The notes under the pieces are model-generated. The model was not told the DNA's origin. It ran no database searches and saw only the letters and a list, made by a program, of their open reading frames with translations. From assembly GCA_964413715.1 (NCBI GenBank), contig CAYPSN010000002.1, positions 66,850 through 119,874 of the forward strand: DNA of 53,025 nt, given 5' to 3'. This stretch comes from an uncultured Candidatus Saccharibacteria bacterium. Its GTDB lineage: Bacteria; Patescibacteriota; Saccharimonadia; CAILAD01; JADZBC01. The position numbers were made by a program, and so were the translations under genes. Below, piece after piece: positions 1 to 53,025 of the stretch (its first letter is position 1; each line of letters begins with the position of its first letter).

Positions 1-156
1 GATTCACGTGCGATTGGGCCAGACCCTCCAAGTGGCAACGCGTAACGGCCCGTTGGTTCTCGAACCAAGCGACCGTTACGGCGAGTGTCTTCATGGCCGA
101 TGGGTGCTTACAGCGCACCGAGGAATGGTGTTGCGTGTGATGGGCATCGCCAACTA

Positions 157-203
157 GCCCACGAGAGAATCCTACGATTCATTCGTGGGCTTCTCTCATT
201 TTT
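157..203 (+). terminator. Intrinsic-terminator-like hairpin
   Basis: GCCCACGA (157-164) pairs with TCGTGGGC (183-190), with an inner GAATC/GATTC helix, followed by TTCTCTCATTTTT. Confidence 0.5.
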
Positions 204-204
204 A

Positions 205-245
205 TGTCAATAATACTTGACATTTTCCATTATTTATGATAGTAT
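205..245 (+). promoter_or_regulatory. Sigma70-type promoter embedded in a TGTCAA-N6-TTGACA inverted repeat
   Basis: TTGACA 217-222, 17-nt spacer, TAGTAT 240-245. Perfect inverted repeat TGTCAA (205-210) / TTGACA (217-222). AT-rich block abutting GC-rich DNA. Confidence 0.6.
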
Positions 246-307
246 TCTTCTGATCTTCGGAAAGCCCGAAGGTAGTAAGTTGAGAACAAGGAAAGGGGGT
301 GATACGG

Positions 308-517
308 ATGGCAGACTCGAAGAGCAAGGACCCGACCGTTTGGCTGGTCTCCTACTTCGTAGCGGCGATCATCACGATCGTGCTACTAGGAGCAGCGCTG
401 AACATGCTGATGGCTGCATTGCCGGTCACGGTGATGCTGATCATCATCGGCGTCCTGGCCTGGCTGTACATCCGCGAGCGTCGCAACTTCGCGGAGTACC
501 GGCGCAACCACCCGTAG
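308..517 (+). CDS. Small hydrophobic protein (69 aa), GC-rich cassette, no recognisable family
   Basis: ATG 308 preceded by AAGGAAAGGGGG. Two hydrophobic stretches (VWLVSYFVAAIITIVLLGAAL, LPVTVMLIIIGVLAWLYI). High GC3. Confidence 0.55.
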   Translation: MADSKSKDPTVWLVSYFVAAIITIVLLGAALNMLMAALPVTVMLIIIGVLAWLYIRERRNFAEYRRNHP

Positions 518-649
518 CGAACGCTACCCAACAGTCAGCCTCGGCTGACAGATTGGAGGCGCCTATGCGCTTTCGAGGGTTGTGCGAGTGATCGTGCAGC
601 CCTGCGGCTGGCCTGATTCGGCCAACCCACTGCCCTTTCCTTCTCAACC

Positions 650-700
650 CACGTCATCAAATGTGTATTTGATCTGAAGAGTTCAAAAGAACGAAACGTG
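650..700 (+). ncRNA. Type III hammerhead ribozyme (HH8)
   Basis: CACGU-C (cleavage predicted after C655), stem I AUCAAA-UGUGUA-UUUGAU, CUGAAGA, stem II GUUC-AAAA-GAAC, GAAA, CGUG. All invariant core positions present. Small hairpin UGGCC/GGCCA at 609-624. Confidence 0.8.
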
Positions 701-711
701 AAAAGAAGAAT

Positions 712-1281
712 CTAGAGAGACTCAATAAACTGCTTAAACTGCGTAAAGCCTGTATACGTGTACCCTTGCATGCCAGACTCTATCGCCCCATCTACATTGC
801 GCTGCCTGTCATCAACAAATAAGATTTCTTCGGCCGGTACAGATACCGACGAAAGTATCTGAGCATAAAAACCCGGCTGGGGCTTAATTACACCCATCTC
901 CGAAGACACAAACACATATTCGAATATGCCAGTAAAATGTTCTTTTTGCAGCAACTCACGCAGCAAATGTGCGCTGGCATTACTTGCAATATAGAGCTGG
1001 TACCGAGGGGCGAGTTGGTTTTTAATATAGCTAAACAACATAGGCTCAATTGGGCTCACGCCATGCTCTCTAGCCCGCAAGACCTCTGCGTCTACGTCAG
1101 CAATCTTGCTTACTTGCTCGTAATACTCATCATCGTTGGCGAGTTCGCCTATGTCTCGCTTACGAAATAACTCATGCAACTTAGCCTTCACGTCTGGCGA
1201 CAGATCGGACTCATTTACCCAATTATGACCATAGTCATCTAACAGCACCCCAAAGCAGTCGAAGGCAATGGCACGAATCAT
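712..1281 (-). CDS. HAD-superfamily hydrolase
   Basis: N-terminal IAFDCFGVL motif I and FVDDRQRNVDGA motif IV-like. 189 aa. 4-nt overlap with polA stop. Confidence 0.7.
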   Translation of the reverse strand: MIRAIAFDCFGVLLDDYGHNWVNESDLSPDVKAKLHELFRKRDIGELANDDEYYEQVSKIADVDAEVLRAREHGVSPIEPMLFSYIKNQLAPRYQLYIASNASAHLLRELLQKEHFTGIFEYVFVSSEMGVIKPQPGFYAQILSSVSVPAEEILFVDDRQRNVDGAIESGMQGYTYTGFTQFKQFIESL

Positions 1282-7394: not shown

Positions 7395-7449
7395 GAGGCC
7401 ATTATACGCCACTCCTAAGAATAAGAACAAAGTATGAATAAGAGACTAA

Positions 7450-7485
7450 GGGCCGGAGTAGAGCTTCGTTGCTCCACCCCGGCCC
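7450..7485 (-). terminator. GC-rich hairpin downstream of the 7500-7841 ORF
   Basis: GGGCCGG...CCGGCCC outer stem with inner GAGC/GCTC. Only a partly U-rich trailer. Confidence 0.45.
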
Positions 7486-7499
7486 ATTGCTGACCATGC

Positions 7500-7841
7500 T
7501 CAGACAGTAGTTGCCTGAACTCGCGTACCTCTCAGCTGACTACACTCCACATGCACCTTGCGTCGAGCAGTTCGATTCCGATTCTTGCGAGCTCGCTTCC
7601 GGCGCACCTGCCGACCAGCAAGCGAAACCGAGTTCTGCACGTACTGCATCGGCAGCCCCGCAACGATCTGCTCGATCGACCTACTGGAACCTGCTTCAAC
7701 CAGAGAGTGCACATGCGGATACATGATCCACACCGCCGCCCTGATTACCGGTTGCTTGCGGCAACCAGTTTCTTCGTACACCCTCCTTCTGAGAGCTTGG
7801 TTGATTGCCCGGGTAACGCGAGACTTTTCGCTTTTGGTCAA
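7500..7841 (-). CDS. GC-rich hypothetical basic protein with an HUH-like (PHVHSLV) segment
   Basis: 113-aa ORF, apparent TTG start, R/K-rich C-terminus. IMYPHVHSLVEAGSSRSIEQIV resembles the HUH strand-helix of Y1 (IS200/RAYT) transposases, but no catalytic Tyr region is present. Confidence 0.4.
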   Translation of the reverse strand: MTKSEKSRVTRAINQALRRRVYEETGCRKQPVIRAAVWIMYPHVHSLVEAGSSRSIEQIVAGLPMQYVQNSVSLAGRQVRRKRARKNRNRTARRKVHVECSQLRGTRVQATTV

Positions 7842-7921
7842 GGGTCGCCTTTATTAGTCGGTCACTCCGCCGCTCGGAGTGAGTAGCAAAATTCTACTCC
7901 TAACACTAAATAATTACAAGG

Positions 7922-8505: not shown

Positions 8506-10038
8506 TTATTTCCAGGACCAGGTGCTTTCTAAGGTGGAGACGGCGTTTTTAGTAAACTCGTCGTTCGATGACATATTAATTTCAAAACTCGTTATCGTGT
8601 CGCTATCAAGCTTGTATTTACTGTTTTTCAGTACGACCACTATCATTGTTTTATTCTGTGGCGCTTCTGTAGTACCGGCATTAAAGACTACCTCTTGTGC
8701 ATCAAAGCCACCGAGAGTAATTTTGCGCTCCGACACCGTGTTGGCAGCCGTAACTTTGTTTGCCTCCTTGGAAGCCGCTACTGCTTTATCTAGACTATCA
8801 ACTTTTGTTATCGATGGCAGCACAGCAATCGTACTTACACCTTGCGAACCAAATGTAGCATCAACTTTACACGCTGAATCATCGGTAGTTACGGTATTGT
8901 CGGTCGGGAGGGCAAATTCAAAACACTTCTTTACAACCGCTACGTAGCCGTCGGGCACAGTAATAGTGGCTTCGAGATTTGCCGAGTCAGACTGCTGTTG
9001 CTCACCCGAAAGCGAATCAGCTGGTACTTCCGTAACCGGTTTTCTACCAAGAATAAGAGCCAAAATAACGATGCCAAAAATCAAAACTGCTGCGCCAATT
9101 CCGACGGCCATTAACACGCCTTTGCCACCTTTGCCGCCAGAACTAGGCGTTGCGGCCATGAGAGCAGGATCGCTATAAGGATCAACTGCAGCTGCTTGAC
9201 CAGCATTTGGATCATCAAGCATGGATTGCAAAGTTGGATCAGTAGCAGCTTGCGGCACCTGGCCATCCATTCCTGGCGCCAACGGTGCACCCGTTACAGG
9301 ATCAATTGCTGTTTGCTCAACTGCGGGCGCAGGCATGGGTTCGGGCATAGCCGGTGCAGCTGGCATAGGTGCAGACTCAGGAGCGATTGGAGCCACAACT
9401 GGCTCGGGCTGAGCTACAGGGGCTTCCGTGGCCATAGGAACGGCCGGTACTGCAGAAGCGTCCATCTCGAGAGGATTAGGAGGCAATGGCTCTGGCGCAG
9501 CTGGGTATGACGTAGCTGGAGCTCCAACGCCAGTATCTTGGCTAGGATCATATGCCTGTGTTGCAGCCGGAGCCGGCATTGCATTTGCAGCGGCATCAGG
9601 CACTACGGGTGCAGCTGGCGCTACTGGTTGGCCTGGAGTAACTGGCACAGCTGGGTCTGGCATAGTTGGCGTTGGCGCTACTGCTTGGCCCGGCATAGCC
9701 TGACTATCGCCAGCCAAAGGTGCTGCGACTGGCGCAGCTTGCACGCTAGGATTCGTAAAGCCCGCCATTGGGTCAGGATTCTCGGCAGCCATATGCGCAT
9801 CAACCACTGCATCGGCTGGATTAGCGGCAGGCGCTGCTGCAGGAGATGCTGGGGCAGCAGGTGGAGTCAATTGGGCGTTTAAAGCGTCTTGGAGGGCTGA
9901 GCCCCCAGAAGCAGCAGGCGCTGTAGGCGCTGGCGTGGCCGCATACGTTGGCGGTATTTGGGCGTCTAGATTAGCTGGCTGGCTCGCACCGTCAGCTGGA
10001 GCATTATTCAATGGAGATTGTGGATCTTGTGGAGTCAT
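8506..10038 (-). CDS. Pro/Ala-rich membrane-anchored protein
   Basis: About 300 aa of P/A low complexity, one TM (GVLMAVGIGAAVLIFGIVILALILG), then a roughly 170-aa globular C-terminal region. Confidence 0.6.
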   Translation of the reverse strand: MTPQDPQSPLNNAPADGASQPANLDAQIPPTYAATPAPTAPAASGGSALQDALNAQLTPPAAPASPAAAPAANPADAVVDAHMAAENPDPMAGFTNPSVQAAPVAAPLAGDSQAMPGQAVAPTPTMPDPAVPVTPGQPVAPAAPVVPDAAANAMPAPAATQAYDPSQDTGVGAPATSYPAAPEPLPPNPLEMDASAVPAVPMATEAPVAQPEPVVAPIAPESAPMPAAPAMPEPMPAPAVEQTAIDPVTGAPLAPGMDGQVPQAATDPTLQSMLDDPNAGQAAAVDPYSDPALMAATPSSGGKGGKGVLMAVGIGAAVLIFGIVILALILGRKPVTEVPADSLSGEQQQSDSANLEATITVPDGYVAVVKKCFEFALPTDNTVTTDDSACKVDATFGSQGVSTIAVLPSITKVDSLDKAVAASKEANKVTAANTVSERKITLGGFDAQEVVFNAGTTEAPQNKTMIVVVLKNSKYKLDSDTITSFEINMSSNDEFTKNAVSTLESTWSWK

Positions 10039-10097
10039 AATACGTAATGTTTAACCCAAGTATAGCAACTTTCGACTTCGAGTACAAAAAACTTATG

Positions 10098-12739: not shown

Positions 12740-12822
12740 TAAATCCATAAAGCGGCAAAGCCCCAAGTCCACTATTAAGTCTATCTACAAAAGGACCGAA
12801 TCATTACTCTCGTTTTACAAGC

Positions 12823-12850
12823 TTGACATTTATATTTTTTATGCTAATAT
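12823..12850 (+). promoter_or_regulatory. Sigma70-type promoter driving a GC-rich ORF
   Basis: TTGACA 12823-12828, 16-nt spacer, TAATAT 12845-12850. AAGGAG RBS before GTG 12893. Confidence 0.6.
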
Positions 12851-12892
12851 AAATATGTTTCTAAAACCTGATCGACAACCCAAGGAGTAGCC

Positions 12893-13429: not shown

Positions 13430-13436
13430 CCCCTCG

Positions 13437-40155: not shown

Positions 40156-40162
40156 GTGTTTA

Positions 40163-40191
40163 AATATACTACATTTGTCAAAATTTGTCAA
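40163..40191 (-). promoter_or_regulatory. Promoter of TrmB paralog 1 (apparently leaderless)
   Basis: TTGACA (40191-40186), 17-nt spacer, TATATT (40168-40163), then 7 nt to ATG 40155. Second TGTCAA copy at 40176-40181. Confidence 0.55.
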
Positions 40192-40266
40192 CAATATATC
40201 AATTTAACCTGTACAAATACGTAATAATGTTGTAGAATAAGTTGTCTCTACCGAAAGGGGACTTCC

Positions 40267-40545
40267 GTGGCAACCAGAACATGGTCAGATTTCTTGGCCA
40301 CCACCGGTGGCCTCTACGACATCAAGGTCGACACTTCTGGCACAGAGCCACAGGTCTGCACTGATGGATTCGATTACACCAAGCTCGAGAGGCGCACCCT
40401 CGACTCTCTAGACTGCGGCATTACTCGAATCTTCATCAACAACGCGATTCAGCACGGTAAACCCCCGTCTCCCCTAGCCGGAAGACATGGACGAACCTGC
40501 ACCTCGTGCCAGACCTACATGGCAGGCGCTCAAAACGCCAATTAA
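40267..40545 (+). CDS. GC-rich hypothetical protein (92 aa)
   Basis: GTG 40267 after AAAGGGGA. High GC3. Confidence 0.45.
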   Translation: MATRTWSDFLATTGGLYDIKVDTSGTEPQVCTDGFDYTKLERRTLDSLDCGITRIFINNAIQHGKPPSPLAGRHGRTCTSCQTYMAGAQNAN

Positions 40546-40546
40546 G

Positions 40547-40580
40547 CTAGGCCGCACCCCATCCACGGGGTGCGGCCTAG
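40547..40580 (+). terminator. GC hairpin terminator
   Basis: CTAGGCCGCACCCC-ATCCAC-GGGGTGCGGCCTAG. Confidence 0.6.
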
Positions 40581-40588
40581 AATACTTT

Positions 40589-41989
40589 ATGGACAATTTC
40601 GTTCGTGGTATTATTGGTTTGATAAGCACAAGAGTAATCATGCCGCCGAAAGAACATATTGCAAGACCGCAAGAAGATGAATCAAGGAGGGTTTTTCCGA
40701 GAATATCGCCCACCGAGGATCCTCTCGATAAGCTCACCGTAAAACAGCTATCCGACCTACCTGAATCAGTTCATGACCTGACTGAAAAAGACGATTACCG
40801 GGAGACCGATGTGCCATTATACGCCGCAATTAAGGCGGAACAAAGGCTTGAGGATAGAGCCCCGACTACTGCGGATGACGAATTGACGCTAGAAGAGTTA
40901 ACGAGAATTAATGACAATATTGATGCCTTTTTGCAGATTCATAATATCGACCTAGATGAAGCACGTCACGATCCAAAATTTGTTCACTCATTAGCGAACA
41001 TGGGTCTAGCTCAGATGGAGCGCGTAGTACTTATGGGCAAGATCCTCGACACGATGCCAAACTTGCTAACGGACGATGCAACTGTACAAAGCCACAGATT
41101 CGAGTCAGCAGATGACCACGTATTTCGACTTTGCATTAATCAATTGCGAGCTTTTCGACAGCTCCCCACCAGCGGAGTAAGCCTCGCAGAAAACGAAGCT
41201 TATGACCCAGCGTGGCGCCGTAAGATTGCACTCATGGCCGATAAAATCCTAAAGGAATTACTGCTTGCAGACAAACAAGAAGGCGAGGAGAAAACACCTG
41301 ACCCCGAAATAGAAGCTGCCGCTAGAAAGTTACTCGAGATTCCTCAGAGTAACGTTGAGGCTGCATTCATTCAGCTTTTAGCGCAAGGCAACATTGAACA
41401 TATCGACTGGAGGCTACTGCCAAAAGAAGTAACCGGCAAGCCTGGCAGGGATCGAAAAGAGCTTTTACCGGAAGAGGTCACAACTCGTGTTTTCAGCCCT
41501 GAAAGAGCTCAAAATTTTATGGATTTCTACGATGCTTTTGGCGGCAAGATCGTCACAACGGAGTTCGACTCAGAAAGCACCAAATACCCATATTACGGTG
41601 TGATATTCGAGGTAGAAGGCAGCAAACAAACGTCTGAAGGGACAAGGATTCCAACAACTTTTGAAGTCGCATATTTAGAAAGAACTGCGGAGAATATGCG
41701 ATTTAGGAGGTCGAAGAATCCAAACCCACAACCTGGCGAACCATTATATAAAGTCCTCTTAGAGCGCGGTAGCCTGGAGCCTACAACCGAGGGTCATGAC
41801 GGAACGTACATTCTTGTAGCGGAGAAGCCTGGTGAATGGAAAGGAACTTTTGCCAAAGACGTTAGTCGTGCAGAAGCAAAGATGCGGAGAGCCCGTATGG
41901 TTCCCCATCGAGGTGAAGATAGGGGTCAATGGATGGATCGAGTTCTAGCAGTAATACAAGAAGAGCTGGACAAAGCAGAGAACGAATAG
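40589..41989 (+). CDS. Acidic hypothetical protein (466 aa)
   Basis: ORF-track frame 40487-41989. Start placed at the first ATG after the terminator (40589). Weak RBS, so the start is uncertain. Confidence 0.55.
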   Translation: MDNFVRGIIGLISTRVIMPPKEHIARPQEDESRRVFPRISPTEDPLDKLTVKQLSDLPESVHDLTEKDDYRETDVPLYAAIKAEQRLEDRAPTTADDELTLEELTRINDNIDAFLQIHNIDLDEARHDPKFVHSLANMGLAQMERVVLMGKILDTMPNLLTDDATVQSHRFESADDHVFRLCINQLRAFRQLPTSGVSLAENEAYDPAWRRKIALMADKILKELLLADKQEGEEKTPDPEIEAAARKLLEIPQSNVEAAFIQLLAQGNIEHIDWRLLPKEVTGKPGRDRKELLPEEVTTRVFSPERAQNFMDFYDAFGGKIVTTEFDSESTKYPYYGVIFEVEGSKQTSEGTRIPTTFEVAYLERTAENMRFRRSKNPNPQPGEPLYKVLLERGSLEPTTEGHDGTYILVAEKPGEWKGTFAKDVSRAEAKMRRARMVPHRGEDRGQWMDRVLAVIQEELDKAENE

Positions 41990-42004
41990 TCAAATCACTT
42001 AAAC

Positions 42005-42032
42005 TAAAAAACTCGAGTAATCTCGAGTTTTT
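42005..42032. terminator. Bidirectional intrinsic terminator
   Basis: AAAAAACTCGAG-TAAT-CTCGAGTTTTTT. Confidence 0.8.
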
Positions 42033-42036
42033 TAGT

Positions 42037-42126
<90 letters not shown>

Positions 42127-42156
42127 CGAACTGGTATAGTTTAGCCGAAAACCAGG

Positions 42157-42936
42157 TTATTTTCTAGACTTGCCGCTACCAGCGTTCGCGCTTGCAACTC
42201 CTGTTTTTACCAATGTAAAAATCTGCTTCATTGCCTCGGCTATCTGTGGGCTCTCTATAATCGTACCGATAACTTCTTCGCCGTATGAAATCAGTGCGGT
42301 TTTGTTGCCATACACATATAGGTTCACAGGCGCCGTAAAGGCTTCGCGCGGCGCCCAGGCCATGTCTCGGAGCATTGCTTTGTCATGTTCACGACCGTAG
42401 CGGATATTATCTTCTTCAGCCGGTTCTATACCGTGCGCTTTTATACCCAGTTTGGCCCGCTGCTCCATGTGCTTGTACAAATCTTTGCCCAACACGTTAA
42501 AGTCAGCATCCGAGCGGATAAAGTAAATGTCTTTACCCGTCCTACGCTGGTCTTCGTACATCTTTATAATCCCTTCTTTACCCTGGAAGAAGCGCACGCC
42601 AGGCTGATGCTGATAGGTGTAGAAGTAATTCAGTAGCTGCGGCATGCTGTCTCGCACCAGTTTTTCGGTAGCAAGAATCTCCTTACGTTTTTCTTCGATA
42701 AGTCGCTCTAAATTTGTGGGGTTGGCGGGATGATAACTCAGCTTTTTGCCAGATTCATCCTTCTCAACAAGACCTAGTGCGCACAACTTGTCGAGAATCA
42801 TATAACAATTTGTACGTGTTTCACCAATCTTTTCAGCCAACTCTGGGGGTGTTAAATCACCAAACTTTATAAGCGTAATATATGCTTTTGCCTGGCTTTT
42901 GGTTAAGCCTATTTGTTGTAAGAGTTCTGCATTCAT
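42157..42936 (-). CDS. TrmB-family transcriptional regulator (paralog 2)
   Basis: IGLTKSQAKAYITLIKFGDLTPPELAEKIGETRTNCYMILDKLCALGLV wHTH. 259 aa. Confidence 0.8.
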   Translation of the reverse strand: MNAELLQQIGLTKSQAKAYITLIKFGDLTPPELAEKIGETRTNCYMILDKLCALGLVEKDESGKKLSYHPANPTNLERLIEEKRKEILATEKLVRDSMPQLLNYFYTYQHQPGVRFFQGKEGIIKMYEDQRRTGKDIYFIRSDADFNVLGKDLYKHMEQRAKLGIKAHGIEPAEEDNIRYGREHDKAMLRDMAWAPREAFTAPVNLYVYGNKTALISYGEEVIGTIIESPQIAEAMKQIFTLVKTGVASANAGSGKSRK

Positions 42937-43033: not shown

Positions 43034-43062
43034 TTGACTATTTAATGCTTTTATTATATACT
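43034..43062 (+). promoter_or_regulatory. Strong sigma70 promoter of the hammerhead-punctuated operon
   Basis: TTGACT 43034-43039, 17-nt spacer, TATACT 43057-43062. GC content jumps immediately downstream. Confidence 0.65.
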
Positions 43063-43119
43063 TCCCCAGGCTCAAGCAACCCCGCTAGAGCCAGCACCTC
43101 GACACGCCTAGGAGGCGAC

Positions 43120-43272
43120 ATGCACGACGATCAAGAGTGGTTCGACAACCGGGACCTCCTCCCCCGCGGAATCATCCTCGGAGTGAGGCCGAAGCCCACG
43201 AACACGCAAAGCAACACGCTGAGCGACGCACTCGAAGACCTGCTGGAGCGGCGCTTCCTGCGCCGACTCTGA
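43120..43272 (+). CDS. Small hypothetical protein (50 aa), first ORF of the operon
   Basis: ATG 43120 follows GGAGG by 5 nt. Sequence MHDDQEWFDNRDLLPRG... Confidence 0.45.
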   Translation: MHDDQEWFDNRDLLPRGIILGVRPKPTNTQSNTLSDALEDLLERRFLRRL

Positions 43273-43316
43273 CGAGGCAACAAGGTAAACGGGGCGGTAC
43301 CTACAAACCCGCCCCC

Positions 43317-43373
43317 CTGACTCGGAGAGTAACGCGCTCTCCCTGACGATGACCGCGCACGGTCGAAAGTCAG
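43317..43373 (+). ncRNA. Type III hammerhead ribozyme (HH1) preceded by a hairpin
   Basis: CUGACU-C (cleavage after 43323), stem I GGAGAG-UAACGCG-CUCUCC, CUGACGA, one extra U, stem II GACCG-CGCA-CGGUC, GAAA, GUCAG. Hairpin GGGGCGG/CCGCCCC at 43291-43315. Confidence 0.8.
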
Positions 43374-43397
43374 CCGCACCTTGAACCAAGGAGAACA

Positions 43398-44003
43398 ATG
43401 AGCACCCCAGCCCTACTGAAAGTCGTCCTGACGGGCGGTCCCTGCGCCGGAAAGACCACGGTCTTCCGCCGCATCGAGCAAGAGTACGGACACCTGGTAA
43501 CGCTGGTGCCCGAAGTAGCCACCATGCTGCTCTCGAGCGGCTACCCCATGCCCGGACGCGACCTCGACTGGTCGCCCGGCTGGCGAGACAGCTTCCAGCG
43601 AGCCATCGCCACGGTCCAGGAAGAGGTAGAGGCGGCCTACGAAATGCGAGCTAAGGAGCGAGGTCACCGCCTCCTCCTGACCGACCGAGGCCTGATGGAC
43701 GGAGCGGCCTACTACGACAGCCGAGCTGAGTTCCTGAGCGCAACCGGAATCGACCATGGCACTGCCCTGGCTCGATACCAGGCGGTCATCCACCTCGAAT
43801 CCGTCGCCATCGCTCAGCCGGAGCTCTACTCGAAGGGCAACAACCCCTTCCGCTTCGAGACACTTGAGGAGGCCATCCCTCTCGAGGCCAAAACCCGAAG
43901 CGCTTGGGCTGGCCACCCACAGCACACCATCCTGGAGGGCGCCGACCTCGACTACAAGGTTAGCGGTACGCTCAGGGTGCTCGCGGCCTACCTGCAGGCA
44001 TGA
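43398..44003 (+). CDS. P-loop NTPase/kinase-like protein (AAA_28/NadR-kinase-like)
   Basis: Walker A GGPCAGKTT. Roughly 200-aa single-domain P-loop protein. RBS AAGGAG. Confidence 0.65.
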   Translation: MSTPALLKVVLTGGPCAGKTTVFRRIEQEYGHLVTLVPEVATMLLSSGYPMPGRDLDWSPGWRDSFQRAIATVQEEVEAAYEMRAKERGHRLLLTDRGLMDGAAYYDSRAEFLSATGIDHGTALARYQAVIHLESVAIAQPELYSKGNNPFRFETLEEAIPLEAKTRSAWAGHPQHTILEGADLDYKVSGTLRVLAAYLQA

Positions 44004-44041
44004 GCAGTGCAAGGTTCCGGGAGGTCCTTTAAAAACCTCCC

Positions 44042-44094
44042 CTGACTCGCGGAGTGAGTGCTCCGCCTGACGAGCCGGAAACGGCGAAAGTCAG
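44042..44094 (+). ncRNA. Type III hammerhead ribozyme (HH2) preceded by a hairpin
   Basis: CUGACU-C (cleavage after 44048), stem I GCGGAG-UGAGUG-CUCCGC, CUGACGA, stem II GCCG-GAAA-CGGC, GAAA, GUCAG. Hairpin GGGAGGU/ACCUCCC at 44019-44041. Confidence 0.85.
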
Positions 44095-44117
44095 TCCGCA
44101 CCTTGAAGGAGGCTTAC

Positions 44118-44696
44118 ATGCCCACTGAACCGAACAACCCTATCGACGAGATCTTCATCTCGGTCGATATCGAGTGCGACGGGGACATCCCCGGCGACTA
44201 CTCGATGCTCAGCATCGGGGCCACTACCCTCGGCAACAGGTACGATCGCGACTTCTACGTCGAACTCCGGCCCATGACCGAACGGTACAACCCCGACAGC
44301 CTGGCAGTAGCCAGCCTGGACCGCACTCGTCTGCTCCGCGAGGGAGTGCCAGCTCAGGTAGCGATGGCTCGGTTTGCAGCCTGGATCGAGGAAGTCCGCG
44401 GACTCCATGGAGACGCCAAAGCGGTGTGTGTCACTCTCAGCGAGTGGGATAACGGCTGGCTCTACTGGTACTTCGTCCACTTCCTGGGCCAAAAGCCCCT
44501 CGGCTTCACCGGCATCGACATCAAGAGCTACTTCATGGGCAAGCATGACCTGAAGGAGTTCGCGGGCACACCCCGAACCGAGATGCTGAAGCACTACCCG
44601 AGTGAGATCGAGCACACGCACAACGCGCTCGACGACGCCCGGGAGCAAGCCGAGATCTTCTGGGCAATGTACCGAGCCCAGCCTCCACAGGCCTAA
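44118..44696 (+). CDS. DEDDh 3'-5' exonuclease (DnaQ-like fold)
   Basis: ExoI SVDIECDG, ExoIII HNALDDAREQA. ATG 44118 after GAAGGAGG. Confidence 0.75.
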   Translation: MPTEPNNPIDEIFISVDIECDGDIPGDYSMLSIGATTLGNRYDRDFYVELRPMTERYNPDSLAVASLDRTRLLREGVPAQVAMARFAAWIEEVRGLHGDAKAVCVTLSEWDNGWLYWYFVHFLGQKPLGFTGIDIKSYFMGKHDLKEFAGTPRTEMLKHYPSEIEHTHNALDDAREQAEIFWAMYRAQPPQA

Positions 44697-44738
44697 GAGA
44701 CACAGAGGTAACCGGGGTGGTACCTACAAACCCGCCCC

Positions 44739-44791
44739 CTGACTCGCGGAGTGAGTGCTCCGCCTGACGAGCCGGAAACGGCGAAAGTCAG
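44739..44791 (+). ncRNA. Type III hammerhead ribozyme (HH3) preceded by a hairpin
   Basis: Ribozyme sequence identical to HH2 (cleavage after 44745). Hairpin GGGGUGG/CCGCCCC at 44714-44738. Confidence 0.85.
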
Positions 44792-44816
44792 TCCGCACCT
44801 TGAACTAAGGAGACCG

Positions 44817-45119
44817 ATGAGAATCGTTCGTCAAGGATCTATCCCGCCCGACCGCAACATCCAGCGAGGAACTTGCAGGCACTGCGGCACAGTGGTGGAA
44901 GCCAACATAACCACTGAGTGCAACCGGCGTACAACGACCAGGGACATTTACACTGATTATGACCCGGATGGACGACCGCCCTACTACTACAGCAAGACTG
45001 TCACGACCGAATACTTTGAGACGGGTTGTCCAGTCTGCTCAAGGCCAATCTGTGTATCCTCGAGGGAAATCTCGAGTACCCATCGGCCGGATGCACCAAA
45101 AGAAAAGTGGAGCATGTAG
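44817..45119 (+). CDS. Small zinc-ribbon-like protein (100 aa)
   Basis: CRHC...CPVC cysteine pairs. ATG 44817 after AAGGAG. Confidence 0.5.
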   Translation: MRIVRQGSIPPDRNIQRGTCRHCGTVVEANITTECNRRTTTRDIYTDYDPDGRPPYYYSKTVTTEYFETGCPVCSRPICVSSREISSTHRPDAPKEKWSM

Positions 45120-45161
45120 GTAGGCGCACAAGGTTCCGGGAGGTCCTTTCAAAACCTCCCC

Positions 45162-45216
45162 CGACTCGGAGAGTAATGCGCTCTCCCTGACGATGACCGC
45201 GCACGGTCGAAAGTCG
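45162..45216 (+). ncRNA. Type III hammerhead ribozyme (HH4) preceded by a hairpin
   Basis: CGACU-C (cleavage after 45167), stem I GGAGAG-UAAUGCG-CUCUCC, CUGACGA, extra U, stem II GACCG-CGCA-CGGUC, GAAA, GUCG. Hairpin GGGAGGU/ACCUCCC at 45138-45160. Confidence 0.8.
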
Positions 45217-45247
45217 GTATACTGTATAATCTACGAAAAGGAGTTGC

Positions 45248-45883
45248 ATGACCGCACAAGTTATTACCATCGATGGAGGCGCTGGCGTAGGTGGCAGCAC
45301 CACGGCCGAAGCACTAAGTAAGGCACTCGGCTGCGAACACCTCAACGTCGGTGAAATCTACCGCGCCCTCACCTTCGAACTGGTTAGCCTCGGCTGGACG
45401 AAGAAGCAGATTATGAGCTCACCCATGCTGGCGGCCGAGCTGGCGGCCGGATTCAAGCTACAGATTGCTAACGGCAGCGTGGCTAGCGTGAATGGTCAAG
45501 ATTGCCAAGGCAAGCTACACGCAGCAGAAATCAGCAAGCTGGTTCCGACTGTTGCGGCCATTCCCGAGATGCGAGCTACCGCCAAGAAGGTAGAGAAGAA
45601 CTTCATTGCAACTCGGCCACTCAGCATCATCGAGGGTCGAGCGGGCGCCTGGAGTATCCCGCAAGCAGTGCTAAAAATCTGGCTGCATTGCGATCCAGAA
45701 ATCGCCGCCAAGCGGCGCGGCTGCACCGTAGCAGAGATCCTGGAGCGCAACCTAGCGGATGCTACACGCGAGCACTCGCCTATGATCAAGCACCCAGATG
45801 CAGTCGCCATCGACACGGGCAAGCTACTCCCGGCCGAGATTGTGCAGCGCATCACGCAGCTCTACCGCGAACTGGCAGAATGA
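45248..45883 (+). CDS. Cytidylate kinase-like P-loop kinase
   Basis: ITIDGGAGVGGST...LNVGEIYRAL resembles the Cmk N-terminus (IDGPxxxGKST...DTGxxYRA). P-loop Lys replaced (GVGGST). TATAAT at 45225-45230 upstream. Confidence 0.6.
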   Translation: MTAQVITIDGGAGVGGSTTAEALSKALGCEHLNVGEIYRALTFELVSLGWTKKQIMSSPMLAAELAAGFKLQIANGSVASVNGQDCQGKLHAAEISKLVPTVAAIPEMRATAKKVEKNFIATRPLSIIEGRAGAWSIPQAVLKIWLHCDPEIAAKRRGCTVAEILERNLADATREHSPMIKHPDAVAIDTGKLLPAEIVQRITQLYRELAE

Positions 45884-45927
45884 CGCGGACAGCTAGGTTC
45901 CTGGGGAGTCCTACCAAAACTCTCCCC

Positions 45928-45977
45928 CGATTCAGCAGATTATGTCTGCTCTGATGAGCCAAGCATGGCGAAAATCG
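45928..45977 (+). ncRNA. Type III hammerhead ribozyme (HH5) preceded by a hairpin
   Basis: CGAUU-C (cleavage after 45933), stem I AGCAGA-UUAUG-UCUGCU, CUGAUGA, stem II GCCA-AGCA-UGGC, GAAA, AUCG. Hairpin GGGGAGU/ACUCUCC at 45903-45925. Confidence 0.85.
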
Positions 45978-45995
45978 GTTATAGTTAGGAGAATA

Positions 45996-46520
45996 ATGAA
46001 CGAAGTTATCGAAATTGAACGCAAGTGGGTCCTCGATGGGCTACCTGAGGGGATCGTTCCGATAAAAAGCCATGAAATCGAACAGGCATACCTAGATGTT
46101 CGTGGTCTACGTTTGCGTAAAAAAGATGAGGGATACTTAATAACCTACAAGAGCAAGGGCGACTTAGCCCGCAGTGAGTGGGAGCAAGAGATTCCCGCTT
46201 GGACTTATGATGGGCTCAAAGCAGAAGCACGTGCGGTACTTCATAAAACTCGTCACGTCTACAATGGCGGCGAGGTGGCCCTAGAGCTCGATGAATACCA
46301 TGGCGAACTCGAAGGACTCTACACAATCGAAGCCGAATGGGCACTGGAAATCCCTAGCACACTCACCCTGAAAGCAAGACAAGAGCTGATTCAAGATGCC
46401 GAGAAGGCTGCCAAAAGCTACATTCTGCCCTATCAGTTCTCTAACGCTCACGAGGTCACAGGCCTTAAAGCTTATAGCAACCGCTCATTGGCAGTTCACG
46501 GCCTACCGAAGCCTAACTAA
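45996..46520 (+). CDS. CYTH-domain (triphosphate tunnel metalloenzyme) protein
   Basis: N-terminal EIERKW signature. ATG 45996 after AGGAGA. Backbone-like GC. Confidence 0.75.
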   Translation: MNEVIEIERKWVLDGLPEGIVPIKSHEIEQAYLDVRGLRLRKKDEGYLITYKSKGDLARSEWEQEIPAWTYDGLKAEARAVLHKTRHVYNGGEVALELDEYHGELEGLYTIEAEWALEIPSTLTLKARQELIQDAEKAAKSYILPYQFSNAHEVTGLKAYSNRSLAVHGLPKPN

Positions 46521-47619: not shown

Positions 47620-48480
47620 ATGAGCCCCGGCAGACCAGAAACTCAACCAAGAAACGAAACTCCTGACGCCAAGATGCAGGGCAGTGAGAAGATAGACCTT
47701 CTTCCTGGGCTAGAGGAACAAAGTCCAGAGGAGTTTGAATGGGCTGTGAGCGACTATTTTAAGGACGTGCAATCGGCAAGACAGCGTGCTATTGAAGAAA
47801 GACACCCAAACCCTTCTGCCGCTGCTAAAGAATTCGTATATAAAAAACATGTAGAGGGTGCTGAGTTCAAAGAACTAGGCAAGCTCTGTGAGATCCTTTT
47901 TCTTGCCCCCCTGGCAGCCGACATACAAGAACGCCTTGACCCTATCAATGATGAGTTAAGTAACCTAAATAACCGATATAGAGACAGAGAAAGTCGACCA
48001 CCAGAAGTTCAGCTCAGGATTGCAGAGCTTAAAAAGCTAAAGAAGCCATTATTAGATAGCATGATGCCCTTCAATCATTTACTTCGCGACTTTGTGATTG
48101 ATAACGGCGACCACATTTCTCACGAAAACCTTGAGAATTGGCTGAGTAAAGCAAATAACAATGTCCCCGGACCATTTAAGAAAATTTTATCTGGGTTCGC
48201 CGTGGAAGCAGCCTGTAACAGGTTTGTCATGCAAGGACTTGCGGGCGAAGATATCGCGTGTCGCAAAAGTACTATCGAAGAAGACAAGGCAGGTATTGAT
48301 ATGGTTATTATCTACCAAGGAAGAGAGATCAATGTAGATGTTAAGACTGGCGGCAATATTGCGGACGGACTAGGAAAAGTTAGCGAGCTAGACATCGAGA
48401 GAAATGAAGTAAGTGGTTTTGACATAAGCCCAAACGCGAGGATTGCTATAGCTAGACGTATACGTAATATGTTGACATAA
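47620..48480 (+). CDS. Hypothetical protein with a possible PD-(D/E)xK-like C-terminal motif
   Basis: 286-aa ORF (alternative start M19 at 47674). GIDMVIIYQGREINVDVK resembles D...(D/E)xK. Confidence 0.5.
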   Translation: MSPGRPETQPRNETPDAKMQGSEKIDLLPGLEEQSPEEFEWAVSDYFKDVQSARQRAIEERHPNPSAAAKEFVYKKHVEGAEFKELGKLCEILFLAPLAADIQERLDPINDELSNLNNRYRDRESRPPEVQLRIAELKKLKKPLLDSMMPFNHLLRDFVIDNGDHISHENLENWLSKANNNVPGPFKKILSGFAVEAACNRFVMQGLAGEDIACRKSTIEEDKAGIDMVIIYQGREINVDVKTGGNIADGLGKVSELDIERNEVSGFDISPNARIAIARRIRNMLT

Positions 48481-48500
48481 ATTAACAAAAGTGCTATTAT
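48472..48500 (+). promoter_or_regulatory. Sigma70 promoter overlapping the end of the upstream gene
   Basis: TTGACA 48472-48477, 17-nt spacer, TATTAT 48495-48500. Confidence 0.55.
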
Positions 48501-48527
48501 ATACTCTCATCAACCGAGGAGGTGAAG

Positions 48528-48689
48528 ATGAGCGACCGACGAGCTTGTGAGATGATCTCCGAGCACACCGTCAGTCATCCCCCGCACACAGCAGAAGCTC
48601 GCGCTGTCGTAATTGCACATATCGCTGCCTGCGATACCTGCAAGAACAAGTACGGAGCGGCAATCGCCGCATGGGACAACAACAACTGA
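48528..48689 (+). CDS. GC-rich 53-aa Cys/His-containing peptide
   Basis: Not in the ORF track (under 60 aa). ATG 48528 after GAGGAGG. Sequence MSDRRACEMISEHTVSHPPH...CDTCKNKY. Followed by 11-bp hairpin 48688-48721. Confidence 0.45.
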   Translation: MSDRRACEMISEHTVSHPPHTAEARAVVIAHIAACDTCKNKYGAAIAAWDNNN

Positions 48690-48737
48690 GGCTCCATGGA
48701 TCGCAAGGTTCATGGAGCCTCTGCTCGTTCATATAAG

Positions 48738-50854: not shown

Positions 50855-50894
50855 TGTAATGAAAAGCCCGTCCCTAGATGTTAGGGACGGGCTT
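50855..50894 (-). terminator. Intrinsic terminator overlapping the stop of the SLOG-like gene
   Basis: AAGCCCGTCCCT-N7-AGGGACGGGCTT (50864-50894), followed on the minus strand by UUUUCAUUAC. Confidence 0.7.
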
Positions 50895-51356
50895 GTTGAG
50901 TACCGCCAACCAGTTGATGAGGATCTGCGACAGACGGCGCTCGGCCACTTTGCCAATGCCCGGGCTGCTGCTTTCACGACTACCTGCCACATTGAGTGTT
51001 AGGATGTCGTTCTCCACCAGCCAGCCTACCACCTCAACCGGGTCGCACTTGTGGAGCAGGTTCACTACGAGACACGGCTTGCCCTGTTCGTTGGCCACGT
51101 TACGAGTCAGCTTTGAGCCACCGCGCAGCGAACCACGAACAAGGATCAGCGTACCGTCGGACTCACACACATTCCTGCGTGTGCGCTGCCGGTAGCCCGA
51201 ACTCGGAGTCTCTTTGACAGAGTATTTGTCCGAAATCTGACCACGCTCGTTGTAGCGTCCCTTCGGCACCCAGCCGCCCGTTGGTATGCCCAGCTTGATG
51301 GCTGCATCCAGAGCCGCTTTGTCTACGCCGGTTTGAGCACCGCTAACGATCTTCAC
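50874..51356 (-). CDS. YpsA/'MoCo-carrier'-type SLOG-family protein
   Basis: IVSGAQTGVDKAALDAAIKLGIPTGGWVPKGR signature. GTG 51356 after AAGGGAGG. Overlaps the upstream ORF end by 14 nt. Confidence 0.65.
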   Translation of the reverse strand: MKIVSGAQTGVDKAALDAAIKLGIPTGGWVPKGRYNERGQISDKYSVKETPSSGYRQRTRRNVCESDGTLILVRGSLRGGSKLTRNVANEQGKPCLVVNLLHKCDPVEVVGWLVENDILTLNVAGSRESSSPGIGKVAERRLSQILINWLAVLNKPVPNI

Positions 51357-51939
51357 GGCGCCTCCCTTTGTAGAGCTGCATGTCGCCATCCTGGCCCAGC
51401 ACGTAGACTGGCAGCCCATCGTAGAACAACGAGGCCTTGGCCAACCCGACAATTACGTCGGGGTCGGGGTAGATTCTCGACCACCGAGTCGCCCTATTCT
51501 CAAGGACGAGTGGCCAGAACTCTCCCCAGTAGGCTTCCCCCTGATCCTCTTCCGCCAGCTCTTCCTCGAGCGGGTCTACGGACATGTCGTCCAAGCCTGA
51601 AAGTGCTTCGACATCGCAGTCGAACCCGGTGACACCACCTTCTTCGGCAATTCGCATCCTCAGATCGAAGAGCTCCGGGTCGTCGCCAACTACGACGGCG
51701 TAGACACGGCCTGCACCGCTCTGGATTCGTGAATCCAGGCGGCCGAACCACACACCGAACATGTCGAGCCACGACATGACACAGGCCTCGTGCGGCGCCA
51801 CCAGCTCGATGCCCTCCCCGCCGTGATCGACCGCGGGCAGAGTGACGACGGTTGGGCGCCGTTCCCGCAACTTCGCGCACAGAAACGCGAACTTCTTGAC
51901 TGGTACGTTGCCAATGACGACGATGATGTCGCGCATCAT
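51343..51939 (-). CDS. GC-rich hypothetical protein (about 198 aa)
   Basis: Start at tandem ATG ATG (51939 or 51936) after AAAGGAGGA. No motif recognised. Confidence 0.5.
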   Translation of the reverse strand: MMRDIIVVIGNVPVKKFAFLCAKLRERRPTVVTLPAVDHGGEGIELVAPHEACVMSWLDMFGVWFGRLDSRIQSGAGRVYAVVVGDDPELFDLRMRIAEEGGVTGFDCDVEALSGLDDMSVDPLEEELAEEDQGEAYWGEFWPLVLENRATRWSRIYPDPDVIVGLAKASLFYDGLPVYVLGQDGDMQLYKGRRREDR

Positions 51940-51987
51940 TCCTCCTTTGTAAAGAGCGTGAATTGGGCCTTCCAACTCAACGTGCAG

Positions 51988-52016
51988 ATTATACAAACTT
52001 TATGTATTTTTGTCAA
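51988..52016 (-). promoter_or_regulatory. Perfect-consensus sigma70 promoter for the GC-rich two-gene operon
   Basis: TTGACA (52016-52011), 17-nt spacer, TATAAT (51993-51988). Confidence 0.65.
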
Positions 52017-52052
52017 TAATATTTGTATAATTTGAAGATTTATGCTTTATTT

Positions 52053-52093
52053 TGTCAATATCTATTTTGACAAACGCTGGAATGTGCTACAAT
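52053..52093 (+). promoter_or_regulatory. Promoter of TrmB paralog 3 within a TGTCAA-N8-TTGACA palindrome
   Basis: Palindrome 52053-52072. TTGACA 52067-52072, extended -10 TGcTACAAT 52085-52093, then 6 nt to ATG 52100 (leaderless). Confidence 0.55.
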
Positions 52094-52099
52094 ATGGAT

Positions 52100-52837
52100 A
52101 TGGAAAATACCCTACACGAACTCGGCCTGTCAAAATCTCAGGCTCGCGCCTATATGATACTTATTGATAACGGAAGACTCGACCCTCTTTCGTTGGCCAA
52201 AAAAACTGGCGAGGCTAGAACGAACGCTTATATGATTATGGAGCGGCTAGCGGACTTGGGGCTTGCTGTGCGCGACGAAGTGAAGAAGAAGCGAATCTAT
52301 CGCCCATCAAGCCCGTTGGGACTCCAAAGATTGGCTGAAAGACAGAGAGCGAAAGCGCATGAGCAAGAAAGAAAAATTAAGCAAGCCATGCCAGATCTTC
52401 TCCGCTATTTTCATGAAAAGTACAGCCAACCTAGTGTTAGGTTTTTACAGGGCCATGATGGAATCAACCAAATTTACAAGGATCATTTGGCGCAAGATGG
52501 AGATATTTATGTATTTCGCACCCAAGAAGATTACAAGTACTACGGTGATGACCTAAATAGCTATTTGGAAGATAAGGCAAGAAAAGGAATAAAAACCGAA
52601 ATTATATCACCTCAATCCAAAATTGCGCTGCAAAACTTTAAAAACAACCCACTTGGACGAGAATTCACATGGGTACCAGAAGAAAGCTATACGGCTCCTG
52701 TCGAGATATCTATATATGGTAATAAAGCAGCCTTCACGTCATTTGGCGAGGAAGCAGTCGCTCTAATAGTGGAAAGTCCCCAAATCGCAAAAGCATTACG
52801 CGAGATTTTTCTTCTGGTTAAAACAAGGGGTATATAG
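52100..52837 (+). CDS. TrmB-family transcriptional regulator (paralog 3)
   Basis: LGLSKSQARAYMILIDNGRLDPLSLAKKTGEARTNAYMIMERLADLGLA wHTH. Start moved to MENTLHEL (52100). Confidence 0.8.
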   Translation: MENTLHELGLSKSQARAYMILIDNGRLDPLSLAKKTGEARTNAYMIMERLADLGLAVRDEVKKKRIYRPSSPLGLQRLAERQRAKAHEQERKIKQAMPDLLRYFHEKYSQPSVRFLQGHDGINQIYKDHLAQDGDIYVFRTQEDYKYYGDDLNSYLEDKARKGIKTEIISPQSKIALQNFKNNPLGREFTWVPEESYTAPVEISIYGNKAAFTSFGEEAVALIVESPQIAKALREIFLLVKTRGI

Positions 52838-52851
52838 CTAAATAGTGTGAT

Positions 52852-52904
52852 GCAACTTTCGTCCTTTTGGACTCATCAGAATAACCCGACAGTTATTGAG
52901 TTGC
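52852..52904 (-). ncRNA. Type III hammerhead ribozyme (HH7) preceded by a UUCG-capped hairpin
   Basis: Minus strand: GCAACU-C (C at 52898), stem I AAUAAC-UGUCGG-GUUAUU, CUGAUGA, stem II GUCC-AAAA-GGAC, GAAA, GUUGC. A 10-bp hairpin CACCCCGGGC-UUCG-GCCUGGGGUG at 52905-52928 lies immediately 5' on that strand. Confidence 0.8.
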
Positions 52905-53025
52905 CACCCCAGGCCGAAGCCCGGGGTGAGGAGTTTATGTGGCTTACTCCTGTGCCTGCGTAGCTGGGGTAGCTACTTGTTGTGTTGCGGCTTAGTTGCC
53001 GCTGCTGTCCACGATGACGGGGGTC

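Follow-up and report, generated by a model that had tools for sequence, protein, structure and literature searches.

Predicted hammerhead ribozyme modules and persistently GC-rich transcription units in a Saccharibacteria chromosome

Hammerhead ribozymes in prophages form clusters that flank single genes or short gene blocks and share one direction of transcription, while the flanked genes vary; the processing of long transcripts into gene-length RNAs was proposed for these clusters and shown in vitro in three cases (Perreault et al. 2011, PMC3088659). In this study we analyse a 53,025-nt stretch of DNA from an uncultured Candidatus Saccharibacteria bacterium (assembly GCA_964413715.1, contig CAYPSN010000002.1, positions 66,850 to 119,874), here called the window, in which eight predicted hammerheads lie in small, GC-rich transcription units. 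Unlike the prophage clusters, these hammerheads occupy chromosomal operons of a bacterium belonging to the candidate phyla radiation (CPR), at positions kept across the family, and neither an integrase nor phage genes lie close to them; all are of type III, and they belong to a fixed module of predicted pseudoknot, ribozyme and Shine-Dalgarno (SD) site that always follows GC-rich cistrons. The literature searched contains no mention of hammerheads together with Saccharibacteria or the CPR, and no description of GC-rich mini-islands in Saccharibacteria or CPR genomes. As far as sequences can tell, the most useful outcome is an unannotated family of hammerhead modules, combined with an atypical base composition that one class of transcription units appears to keep stably.

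Several other described systems resemble parts of this arrangement. Classical genomic islands, which arise by horizontal transfer and then ameliorate in composition, likewise stand out by an odd composition with sharp borders, contain accessory genes or genes of unknown function, and differ for some units in presence and absence between relatives. Acquired DNA is more often AT-rich, whereas the units of the window are GC-rich in an AT-richer genome. In further contrast to genomic islands, these units are tiny (0.2-3 kb), lack integrases and flanking repeats, harbour a transfer-messenger RNA (tmRNA) gene inside one unit (block 8) instead of at an edge, and are in many cases orthologous in place, with no compositional drift at native-like synonymous divergence. 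Integron cassettes share with the window the same-orientation arrays of single open reading frames (ORFs) behind one promoter, the variable content and order and the structured separators; here, however, the separators are predicted catalytic RNA motifs, no attI or attC sites are apparent, and a free-standing cassette has its own promoter and terminator. Synthetic insulators of the RiboJ type place a hammerhead-derived self-cleaving element between the promoter and the ribosome-binding site (RBS), where it fixes the 5' end of the mRNA whatever sequence comes before it. The hammerheads of the window also stand directly upstream of the RBS, but their modules are natural and conserved, and each is combined with a pseudoknot on its upstream side, which would close off the 3' end of the message before it. 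Eukaryotic retrozymes, finally, are units of ~0.6-1 kb with type III hammerhead repeats around them. The type III hammerheads of the window are direct repeats a few hundred bases apart as well, although the units between them encode RBS-bearing proteins in a bacterial operon and show no reverse-transcription features.

With moderate confidence, we read the window as part of a two-compartment Saccharibacteria chromosome, in which GC-rich units are shared family-wide and hammerheads process operon RNA. Small, self-contained transcription units of ~57-64% GC lie scattered among core genes of ~47% GC. Codon periodicity, ORF content and folding separate three kinds of GC-rich unit. In the first, a small gene for an accessory protein lies between an AT-rich promoter and a terminator of its own; the second consists of structured RNA genes, represented by tmRNA and at least three unannotated candidates as judged from folding predictions; the third consists of operons in which a conserved module stands at the end of each GC-rich cistron. 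Some of the accessory units appear to have been in place since before the lineage split and to evolve fast.

A preliminary description of the window had guessed a Saccharibacterium as its source. This is borne out by GroEL, which is 84-85% identical to that of several Saccharibacteria metagenome-assembled genomes (MAGs), and by the core chromosomal genes present (polA, rpoD, dnaG, murE, an LCP transferase gene, rarA, tldD/pmbA, groESL and pgi). The 14 GC-rich stretches of that description are numbered here as blocks 1-14 in window order. Loci numbered with an L are related contigs or MAG segments from NCBI, JGI, ENA and Logan. L118-L120 are three relatives colinear with 10-32 kb of the window (RarA 82-86% identical), L081 is a close relative used for operon comparison, and L083 and L009 are one contig from a more distant relative (GroEL in L009 78% identical to that of the window). 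Taxon labels were present for a minority of homologue matches. Protein scans with Pfam and NCBIfam covered 59 ORFs of the window (presumed genes of at least 100 aa and smaller island ORFs); among them there was no integrase or transposase, as the preliminary description had also noted, no reverse transcriptase, and no IntI or other recombinase domain that would mark an integron.

Each of the 14 blocks has 55.5-64.4% GC, and pooled they reach 58.8% over 11,798 nt, compared to 46.9% outside the blocks and 49.6% in the whole window. At least 57% GC was found in 48 of 352 overlapping 300-nt intervals, whereas shuffling in 30-nt blocks left 4.7 such intervals on average and never more than 13. The GC-rich mosaic noticed in the preliminary description is therefore real, and its hand counts were correct (65.0% GC for 43398-43457, 48.3% for 33121-33180). 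The composition switches abruptly, as it had stated, with a GC content of 0.22-0.49 in the outer 100 nt and 0.52-0.64 in the inner 100 nt of the edges. Also in agreement, GC at third codon positions (GC3) is 0.62-0.86 in coding blocks versus ~0.4-0.55 in native genes; GC at first and second positions (GC1, GC2) is raised too. Strong promoter-like sites at the edges were likewise recovered: seven blocks are abutted by sequences that agree with the promoter consensus at 10-12 of 12 positions (217-245(+), 12823-12850(+), 38768-38740(-), 39381-39353(-), 43034-43062(+), 48472-48500(+) and 52016-51988(-)). The tetranucleotide profile of the blocks correlates at 0.35 with native DNA and at 0.90 with the islands of relatives.

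Other parts of the same description need qualification. GGAGG-type RBSs are present but do not discriminate, because genes of native composition carry them too, e.g., the CYTH gene at 45996. Several blocks do consist of ORFs for small proteins, yet about five lack codon periodicity and are probably RNA genes, including that of tmRNA. The hairpins regarded as unique to each block exist, but in part belong to one shared repeat family, the hammerhead modules. Finally, shared flanking repeats had been thought absent, whereas four blocks share eight hammerheads together with repeated hairpin and RBS modules. Besides these modules, an 8-mer survey revealed nothing that the islands have in common, be it a motif or an uptake-like sequence.

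A permissive Rfam scan gave sub-threshold type III hammerhead matches. A search for the structural pattern, together with a covariance model of the local copies, detected eight complete type III hammerheads in blocks 1, 8, 11 and 14:

650-700 (+), hammerhead in block 1, predicted cleavage after C655
37516-37568 (-), hammerhead in block 8, predicted cleavage after C37562
43317-43373 (+), hammerhead in block 11, predicted cleavage after C43323
44042-44094 (+), hammerhead in block 11, predicted cleavage after C44048
44739-44791 (+), hammerhead in block 11, predicted cleavage after C44745
45161-45217 (+), hammerhead in block 11, predicted cleavage after C45167
45927-45978 (+), hammerhead in block 11, predicted cleavage after C45933
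52852-52904 (-), hammerhead in block 14, predicted cleavage after C52898

The other ten blocks gave none in a full-model scan with the filters off. The core motifs CUGANGA and GAAA, pair U16.1-A15.1, C17 and three helices are present in all eight copies; helices I and II are closed by loops and helix III is open, the topology of type III. Covariation was assessed in 30 copies (26 distinct sequences) from nine related loci. Pairing holds in 98.8% of the cells of this set and drops to 32-42% if the partners are slid by 1-3 columns; compensatory, two-sided changes occur in 14 of the 16 pairs, and the observed score was reached in 0 of 500 shuffles. The pairs U16.1-A15.1 and G10.1-C11.1 are invariant in the 26 distinct sequences. 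The local covariance model scores its six training copies at 64-76 bits and two held-out variant copies at 34-36 bits. Position is equally constrained: GC is 0.54-0.66 in the 300 nt upstream of every one of the 30 hammerheads, an SD site and a start codon follow most of them after 8-22 nt, and about one third stand at a step down to native composition, for instance before the CYTH gene or before groES. By core and covariation, we take the eight predicted hammerheads to be real.

Five of them punctuate the operon of block 11 (43034-46520, +), which comprises six ORFs with a hammerhead in each interval:

43034-43062 (+), promoter
43120-43272 (+), 50-aa ORF
43275-43316 (+), pre-hammerhead hairpin
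43398-44003 (+), AAA_28 ATPase
44010-44041 (+), pre-hammerhead hairpin
44118-44696 (+), DEDD exonuclease
44697-44738 (+), pre-hammerhead hairpin
44817-45119 (+), Cys-rich 100-aa ORF
45129-45160 (+), pre-hammerhead hairpin
45248-45883 (+), cytidylate kinase (cmk)
45885-45926 (+), pre-hammerhead hairpin
45996-46520 (+), CYTH gene of native GC

Every spacer of the operon contains, in this order, the stop codon, the hairpin, the hammerhead, a short conserved sequence (CCGCACCUUGAA), AGGAG and the start codon. The spacer module spans ~110 nt and consists of a hairpin or H-type pseudoknot, a type III hammerhead and an SD site; the hammerhead modules of one operon are 93-100% identical. The hairpins fall into two conserved sequence types, both of which can form an H-type pseudoknot with bases just upstream, leaving an A-rich third loop. 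The second stem of this pseudoknot measures 4-5 bp in 17 of 18 modules compared to ~2.7 in shuffled controls, and in two modules it changes from AAGG/CCUU to UAGG/CCUA (one A-U to U-A position). These pseudoknots were checked sequence by sequence, and a whole-module consensus fold was dropped; column-based counts for the module are unreliable, because MAFFT misaligned the two module types.

The operon recurs in relatives. Beside the same TrmB-like gene and pgi, L081 has, in order, a lipoprotein gene, hammerhead, exonuclease, hammerhead, AAA_28, hammerhead, cmk, hammerhead and CYTH. L083 has a small ORF, two hammerheads, exonuclease, hammerhead, AAA_28, hammerhead and CYTH, without cmk, and in both loci the operon cistrons are GC-rich throughout. 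Shorter versions occupy the same slot in L001, L003 and L005. The order in the window (AAA_28, exonuclease, the additional Cys-rich ORF, cmk, CYTH) differs from that of L081 and L083, so the cistrons have been shuffled: compared to L081, the exonuclease and AAA_28 genes are swapped, with breakpoints within the repeated modules. The TrmB-adjacent operon of exonuclease, AAA_28 and CYTH, with a hammerhead before each, is present in both loci and is read as vertically inherited. The lipoprotein ORF was considered as a slot-hopping cassette, but its copy in L081 is just 36% identical and is better read as a paralogue.

We infer from this layout that each hammerhead would, in the cell, cut itself after C17 during transcription and thereby split a polycistronic or read-through transcript into single-gene mRNAs. 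The upstream fragment would end in the pseudoknot with a 2',3'-cyclic phosphate, and the downstream fragment would carry a 5'-OH at its start, followed by the folded body of the ribozyme, shortly before the RBS; such structured ends may insulate and stabilise each message in the manner of engineered ribozyme insulators. The repeated modules could moreover provide homology for recombination, which would explain the differing order and content of cistrons between relatives.

Besides the operon, the following protein-coding units lie in the GC-rich blocks:

1-154, 3' end of a separate GC-rich 132-aa ORF in the left part of block 1
217-700 (+), block 1, with promoter-like site 217-245, 69-aa membrane-protein ORF 308-517 (GC3 0.86) and structured 3' region
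12820-13497 (+), block 3, with promoter 12823-12850, 178-aa ORF 12893-13429 (GC3 0.80) and terminator hairpin 13436-13489
14465-14752 (+), block 4, 4Fe-4S ferredoxin (Fer4_15)
19764-20459 (+), block 5, 231-aa ORF with N-terminal membrane helix (GC3 0.74)
21078-21428 (-), block 6, 116-aa ORF (GC3 0.62)
22899-23498 (-), block 7, 199-aa membrane protein (GC3 0.74)
48472-48730 (+), block 12, with promoter 48472-48500, RBS, 53-aa ORF 48528-48689 and hairpin
50864-52837 (both strands), block 13 and regulator, lineage-specific segment of ~2 kb
52016-50864 (-), block 13 operon, with promoter 52016-51988, 198-aa ORF without known family 51939-51343, cpYpsA/SLOG gene 51356-50874 and terminator 50894-50864
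52052-52837 (+), low-GC TrmB-like gene, divergent from the block 13 operon
52852-53025 (-), block 14, 3' end of a GC-rich gene for a conserved membrane protein (in relatives 572-611 aa), then hammerhead

Same-position and equally GC-rich orthologues exist in relatives for 43065-45890, the ferredoxin gene, 21078-21428, 22899-23498, block 14 and part of block 8. The ferredoxin gene has GC-rich counterparts in place in L118 and L119 (83-90% identity), block 6 has an orthologue in L119 (64%) and similar-sized ORFs at the same position in L118 and L120, and block 7 has fast-evolving same-position orthologues in L118-L120 (24-50% identity, neighbours 61-86%). The slot of block 5, after the LCP gene, contains other GC-rich ORFs of 228-233 aa in L118 and L120 (21-24% identity) and none in L119. 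The gene of block 14 and its hammerhead lie directly upstream of groES in six relatives. An absence test separates these units: block 3 is missing in three of three relatives, the block 13 segment in six of six and the ferredoxin gene in one of three (L120), whereas 43065-45890, 21078-21428, 22899-23498, 52852-53025 and parts of block 8 are present at the same position in relatives.

At four-fold degenerate sites, most island orthologues differ by 0.47-0.73, and native genes by 0.37-0.82, mostly 0.47-0.82; lower values (0.28 each) were obtained when the exonuclease was compared with L081 and the lipoprotein with L003. The GC content of these sites (GC4) is nevertheless 0.62-0.88 in the island genes of the window, compared to 0.41-0.58 in native genes, and mostly 0.64-0.89 in the islands of relatives (0.49 and 0.57 in two comparisons). 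Even in L083, the deepest relative sampled, where the exonuclease and AAA_28 proteins are 38-59% identical, GC4 is still 0.68-0.88. Because these sites are heavily diverged yet GC-rich, the composition is maintained and is no donor leftover; at the depth of L083 a donor residue should have faded, and therefore something keeps the units GC-rich. The drift to host composition that would characterise a genomic island failed to appear, GC4 having held despite the four-fold differences. As to the force, our guess is selection at the RNA level, on structure or stability, with GC-biased gene conversion (gBGC) as the alternative. Translational selection is unlikely, since untranslated parts and RNA genes are GC-rich too.

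Block 3 behaves differently. It is absent from L118-L120, where the HIT and rhodanese genes abut, and it codes for a protein of a rare family, with 28 representatives found in a set of 1.84 billion proteins. A copy in L121 is 88.6% identical over 676 nt, promoter included, amid unrelated flanking genes, and the shared segment begins at the -35 box and stops just past the terminator. The AT-rich promoter is accordingly part of the mobile unit, and in this sole cassette with mapped borders the preliminary idea of expression-ready slots with native promoters finds no support. L121 has a background of 43% GC and a Saccharibacteria-like tetranucleotide signature (r = 0.76). The four-fold difference of block 3 is just 0.23, compared to 0.37 for GroES and 0.47-0.82 for the other native pairs, which points to a recent lateral move; at least this ~680-bp cassette of promoter, ORF and terminator has thus been exchanged between genomes. 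The cassette in L121 is flanked by a 118-nt direct repeat of ~80% identity (L121 5506-5623 and 6318-6436), which may be a clue to its insertion; around the two insertions in the window, no convincing direct or inverted repeats were found. The second insertion is the ~2-kb segment of block 13, which is absent from six relatives, occurs in the window lineage alone and is itself mixed, with a low-GC TrmB-like regulator and a divergent high-GC operon.

The preliminary description explained the blocks by repeated capture of genes from a foreign donor of high GC, plausibly an actinobacterial host or the phages of that host, into expression-ready slots; in this model the captures are fairly recent, and the GC content is a donor remnant. 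Saccharibacteria are naturally competent epibionts of Actinobacteria, which counts for this model. The block k-mers are also closer to a 69%-GC planctomycete (r = 0.73) than to native DNA (r = 0.35); presence and absence differ for 12855-13495, 50870-51960 and, in L120, the ferredoxin gene; cpYpsA is without a close Saccharibacteria homologue (best matches 55-61%, the named ones from Planctomycetes and Proteobacteria); and the plasmid matches of the ferredoxin come from Streptomyces alone (43-46% identity). We nonetheless consider the donor model unlikely. Blocks 3 and 13 are true insertions, one of them laterally moved, but many other blocks are orthologous in place: at least six have same-position GC-rich orthologues, most of them heavily diverged at synonymous sites, and the islands with traceable relatives find their best matches in the same lineage and with the same composition. 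An actinobacterial donor is disfavoured, as no actinobacterial match exceeds 46% identity and homologues of the AAA_28 protein (best matches 79%, 68% and 60%, two of them on such contigs) and of the ORF at 12893 (89% identity) reside on Saccharibacteria-like contigs. Further points against donor slots are the promoter belonging to the mobile cassette, the RNA genes that make up about five blocks and the mixed composition of the inserted 2-kb module. A phage link was dropped: PHROGs matches were weak and generic, the exonuclease is just 28-33% identical to those of jumbo phages, and pattern scans of viral contigs for the pseudoknots hit four related T7-like contigs without hammerheads for one type and none for the other, which was taken as chance.

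About as improbable as the donor model is a process in which the GC-rich units are recombination hot spots and gBGC keeps them GC-rich with no selection on RNA. The content and order of islands vary among relatives, the near identity of modules within an operon suggests gene conversion, one cassette was recently exchanged, and all three codon positions as well as non-coding spacers are shifted to GC. Yet the effect would be very large (GC3 0.7-0.9 versus ~0.5), while gBGC effects reported in bacteria are small, and single-copy genes in place, such as that of ferredoxin, are equally GC-rich. A retrozyme-like life of the hammerhead-flanked cistrons, in which cuts at two neighbouring ribozymes would free a unit for circularisation, reverse transcription and reinsertion, seems very remote. 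It would fit the spacing of ~0.4-0.8 kb between type III hammerheads that bracket single ORFs as direct repeats, the near-interchangeable helix III of the copies, from which a circle would rebuild a complete ribozyme, and the swapped order of exonuclease and AAA_28. However, the scanned ORFs of the window include no reverse transcriptase, primer-binding-site or polypurine-tract features and target-site duplications were not seen, and the rearrangements stay within one syntenic operon, for which DNA recombination between modules is simpler. The chance that the mosaic is a chimera of metagenome assembly is close to nil: record names suggest a metagenome assembly as the source, but contigs from two other samples (L123, L124) have the identical arrangement over the left 11 kb, the sole stretch checked, and independent MAGs and contigs from NCBI, JGI, ENA and Logan show a like architecture. 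Rather far-fetched, too, is the notion that the GC-rich, often hammerhead-bounded units form an RNA-level gene compartment, whose composition is actively maintained by a distinct life of the transcripts. These might survive decay that targets A/U, or work in a GC-rich actinobacterial host after export; alternatively, the cassettes might spread as ribozyme-processed RNAs. If true, this would be a new way to organise and exchange accessory genes in ultra-small epibiotic bacteria.

The two-compartment reading, with hammerheads that process operon RNA, is preferred over these alternatives, but several points weigh against it. Relatives were compared for about ten of the 14 blocks (all but blocks 1, 2, 10 and 12). 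All eight hammerheads fall below the gathering threshold of Rfam RF00008 (48.5 bits), four scoring 36.8-43.9 bits and the other four being unlisted, a shortfall that is due to short loops and to the stem sequences. In the copies at 43317-43373 and 45161-45217, one additional U stands between A9 and G10.1; their counterparts in L001, L003, L005 and L081 share it, and the base is therefore probably tolerated. With hammerheads in just four of 14 blocks, ribozymes cannot explain the whole GC-rich compartment. The argument for a maintained composition draws on 30-90 four-fold sites per gene, and the orthology of the compared island genes was deduced from position. The units may conceivably also have been replaced again and again from some unseen pool of GC-rich sequences. 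Lastly, the matches of cpYpsA and ferredoxin described above make a foreign origin likely for some islands.

The remaining blocks contain mainly non-coding, structured units:

7440-7919 (-), block 2, with promoter-like site 7919-7891, ~430-nt transcript and hairpin ~7483-7447; candidate structured RNA
35920-38768 (-), block 8, composite GC-rich unit with promoter 38768-38740, partly conserved in L003
38730-37569 (-), leader-side stretch of block 8, ~1.16 kb without ORF or codon periodicity
37406-37173 (-), 77-aa ORF of block 8
37163-36798 (-), tmRNA of block 8 (Rfam)
36412-36092 (-), lipoprotein ORF of block 8 (GC3 0.86), with a spacer before and a structured tail and terminator after it
38895-39381 (-), block 9, with promoter 39381-39353 (11/12), predicted ~430-nt highly structured RNA and terminator 38913-38894
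40210-40580 (+), block 10, with promoter-like site 40210-40238, ~330-nt unit and 14-bp terminator stem 40547-40580

At gathering thresholds, Rfam recognised tmRNA and tRNA-Ser alone, and 7440-7886, 37569-38735, 38895-39345 and 40245-40590 matched no Rfam family at E up to 1. Block 2 (7440-7886) has no codon periodicity and a folding z of -4.4, and the 113-aa ORF inside it looks spurious. The RNA of block 9 also lacks codon periodicity, folds with z = -9.0 and is conserved in L005, including promoter and 3' hairpin; 38895-39345 may be a new structured RNA. RNase P, the signal recognition particle (SRP) RNA and 6S RNA were weighed by eye for this segment and dropped, there being no model match. 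Block 10 shows weak periodicity, a possible 92-aa ORF (40267-40545) and z = -6.1, and 40245-40590 (+) is possibly a structured RNA.

In block 8, both ends of 37569-38735 (-) are 83% conserved in L003, and the middle varies in length; this stretch could be a leader of great length or else a large RNA without coding function. The tmRNA gene directly follows the 77-aa ORF, and no separate promoter match lies in the gap. The syntenic segment of L003 (12143-12609) has no nucleotide match to tmRNA and contains a second hammerhead instead (L003 12501-12554).

Three TrmB-family regulators of native low GC are found at 39394-40194(-), 42157-42936(-) and 52052-52837(+), the latter two 43-44% identical to TrmB homologues of relatives. 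Their divergently transcribed GC-rich partners are 40250-40585, the hammerhead operon (from 43065) and the 51939-50874 operon, respectively, and the promoter regions of the two operons are 73% alike (repeat D10). Between the first two regulators, the stretch with a 500-aa ORF without family match (40487-41989, +) and tRNA-Ser(GGA) (42038-42127, -) is different in each of L001, L003 and L005, and 40487-42127 is a local hot spot of gene turnover. Next to block 3, the rhodanese-family ORF 13508-14644(-) is 378 aa long versus 296-302 aa in orthologues; the surplus residues at its N-terminus, which overlap with the oppositely oriented ferredoxin gene, are probably not translated. A heliorhodopsin gene (30675-31451, -; Pfam E = 1.7e-99) is kept in L118-L120; beside it, L118 and L119 have an island with a GC3 of 0.91 that the window lacks. 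A further GC-rich segment, 9150-10050, was overlooked in the preliminary description. Its GC1 and GC2 are high, its GC3 is just 0.39, and it is no island; it is GC-rich because it corresponds to the Ala/Pro-rich low-complexity half of the following ORF:

8506-10038 (-), 510-aa protein with 300 N-terminal Ala/Pro-rich low-complexity residues, then a membrane helix and a globular domain

What bacterial hammerheads do has been asked ever since the prophage finds of 2011, and the window provides a conserved chromosomal setting in which to view it. Standard annotation misses these hammerheads because of their scores below the Rfam threshold, and hammerheads in candidate-phyla bacteria may thus be under-counted. 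Since GC-richness persists despite synonymous divergence, atypical composition is no safe sign of recent transfer in these genomes, and the question arises which force keeps a subset of transcription units at or above 60% GC when the genome has 47%. Across the Saccharibacteria family, an operon for nucleotide handling (ATPase, exonuclease, cytidylate kinase and CYTH) appears to carry a predicted ribozyme in each spacer, and its fixed module predicts the sites of RNA ends and the lifetimes of the messages.

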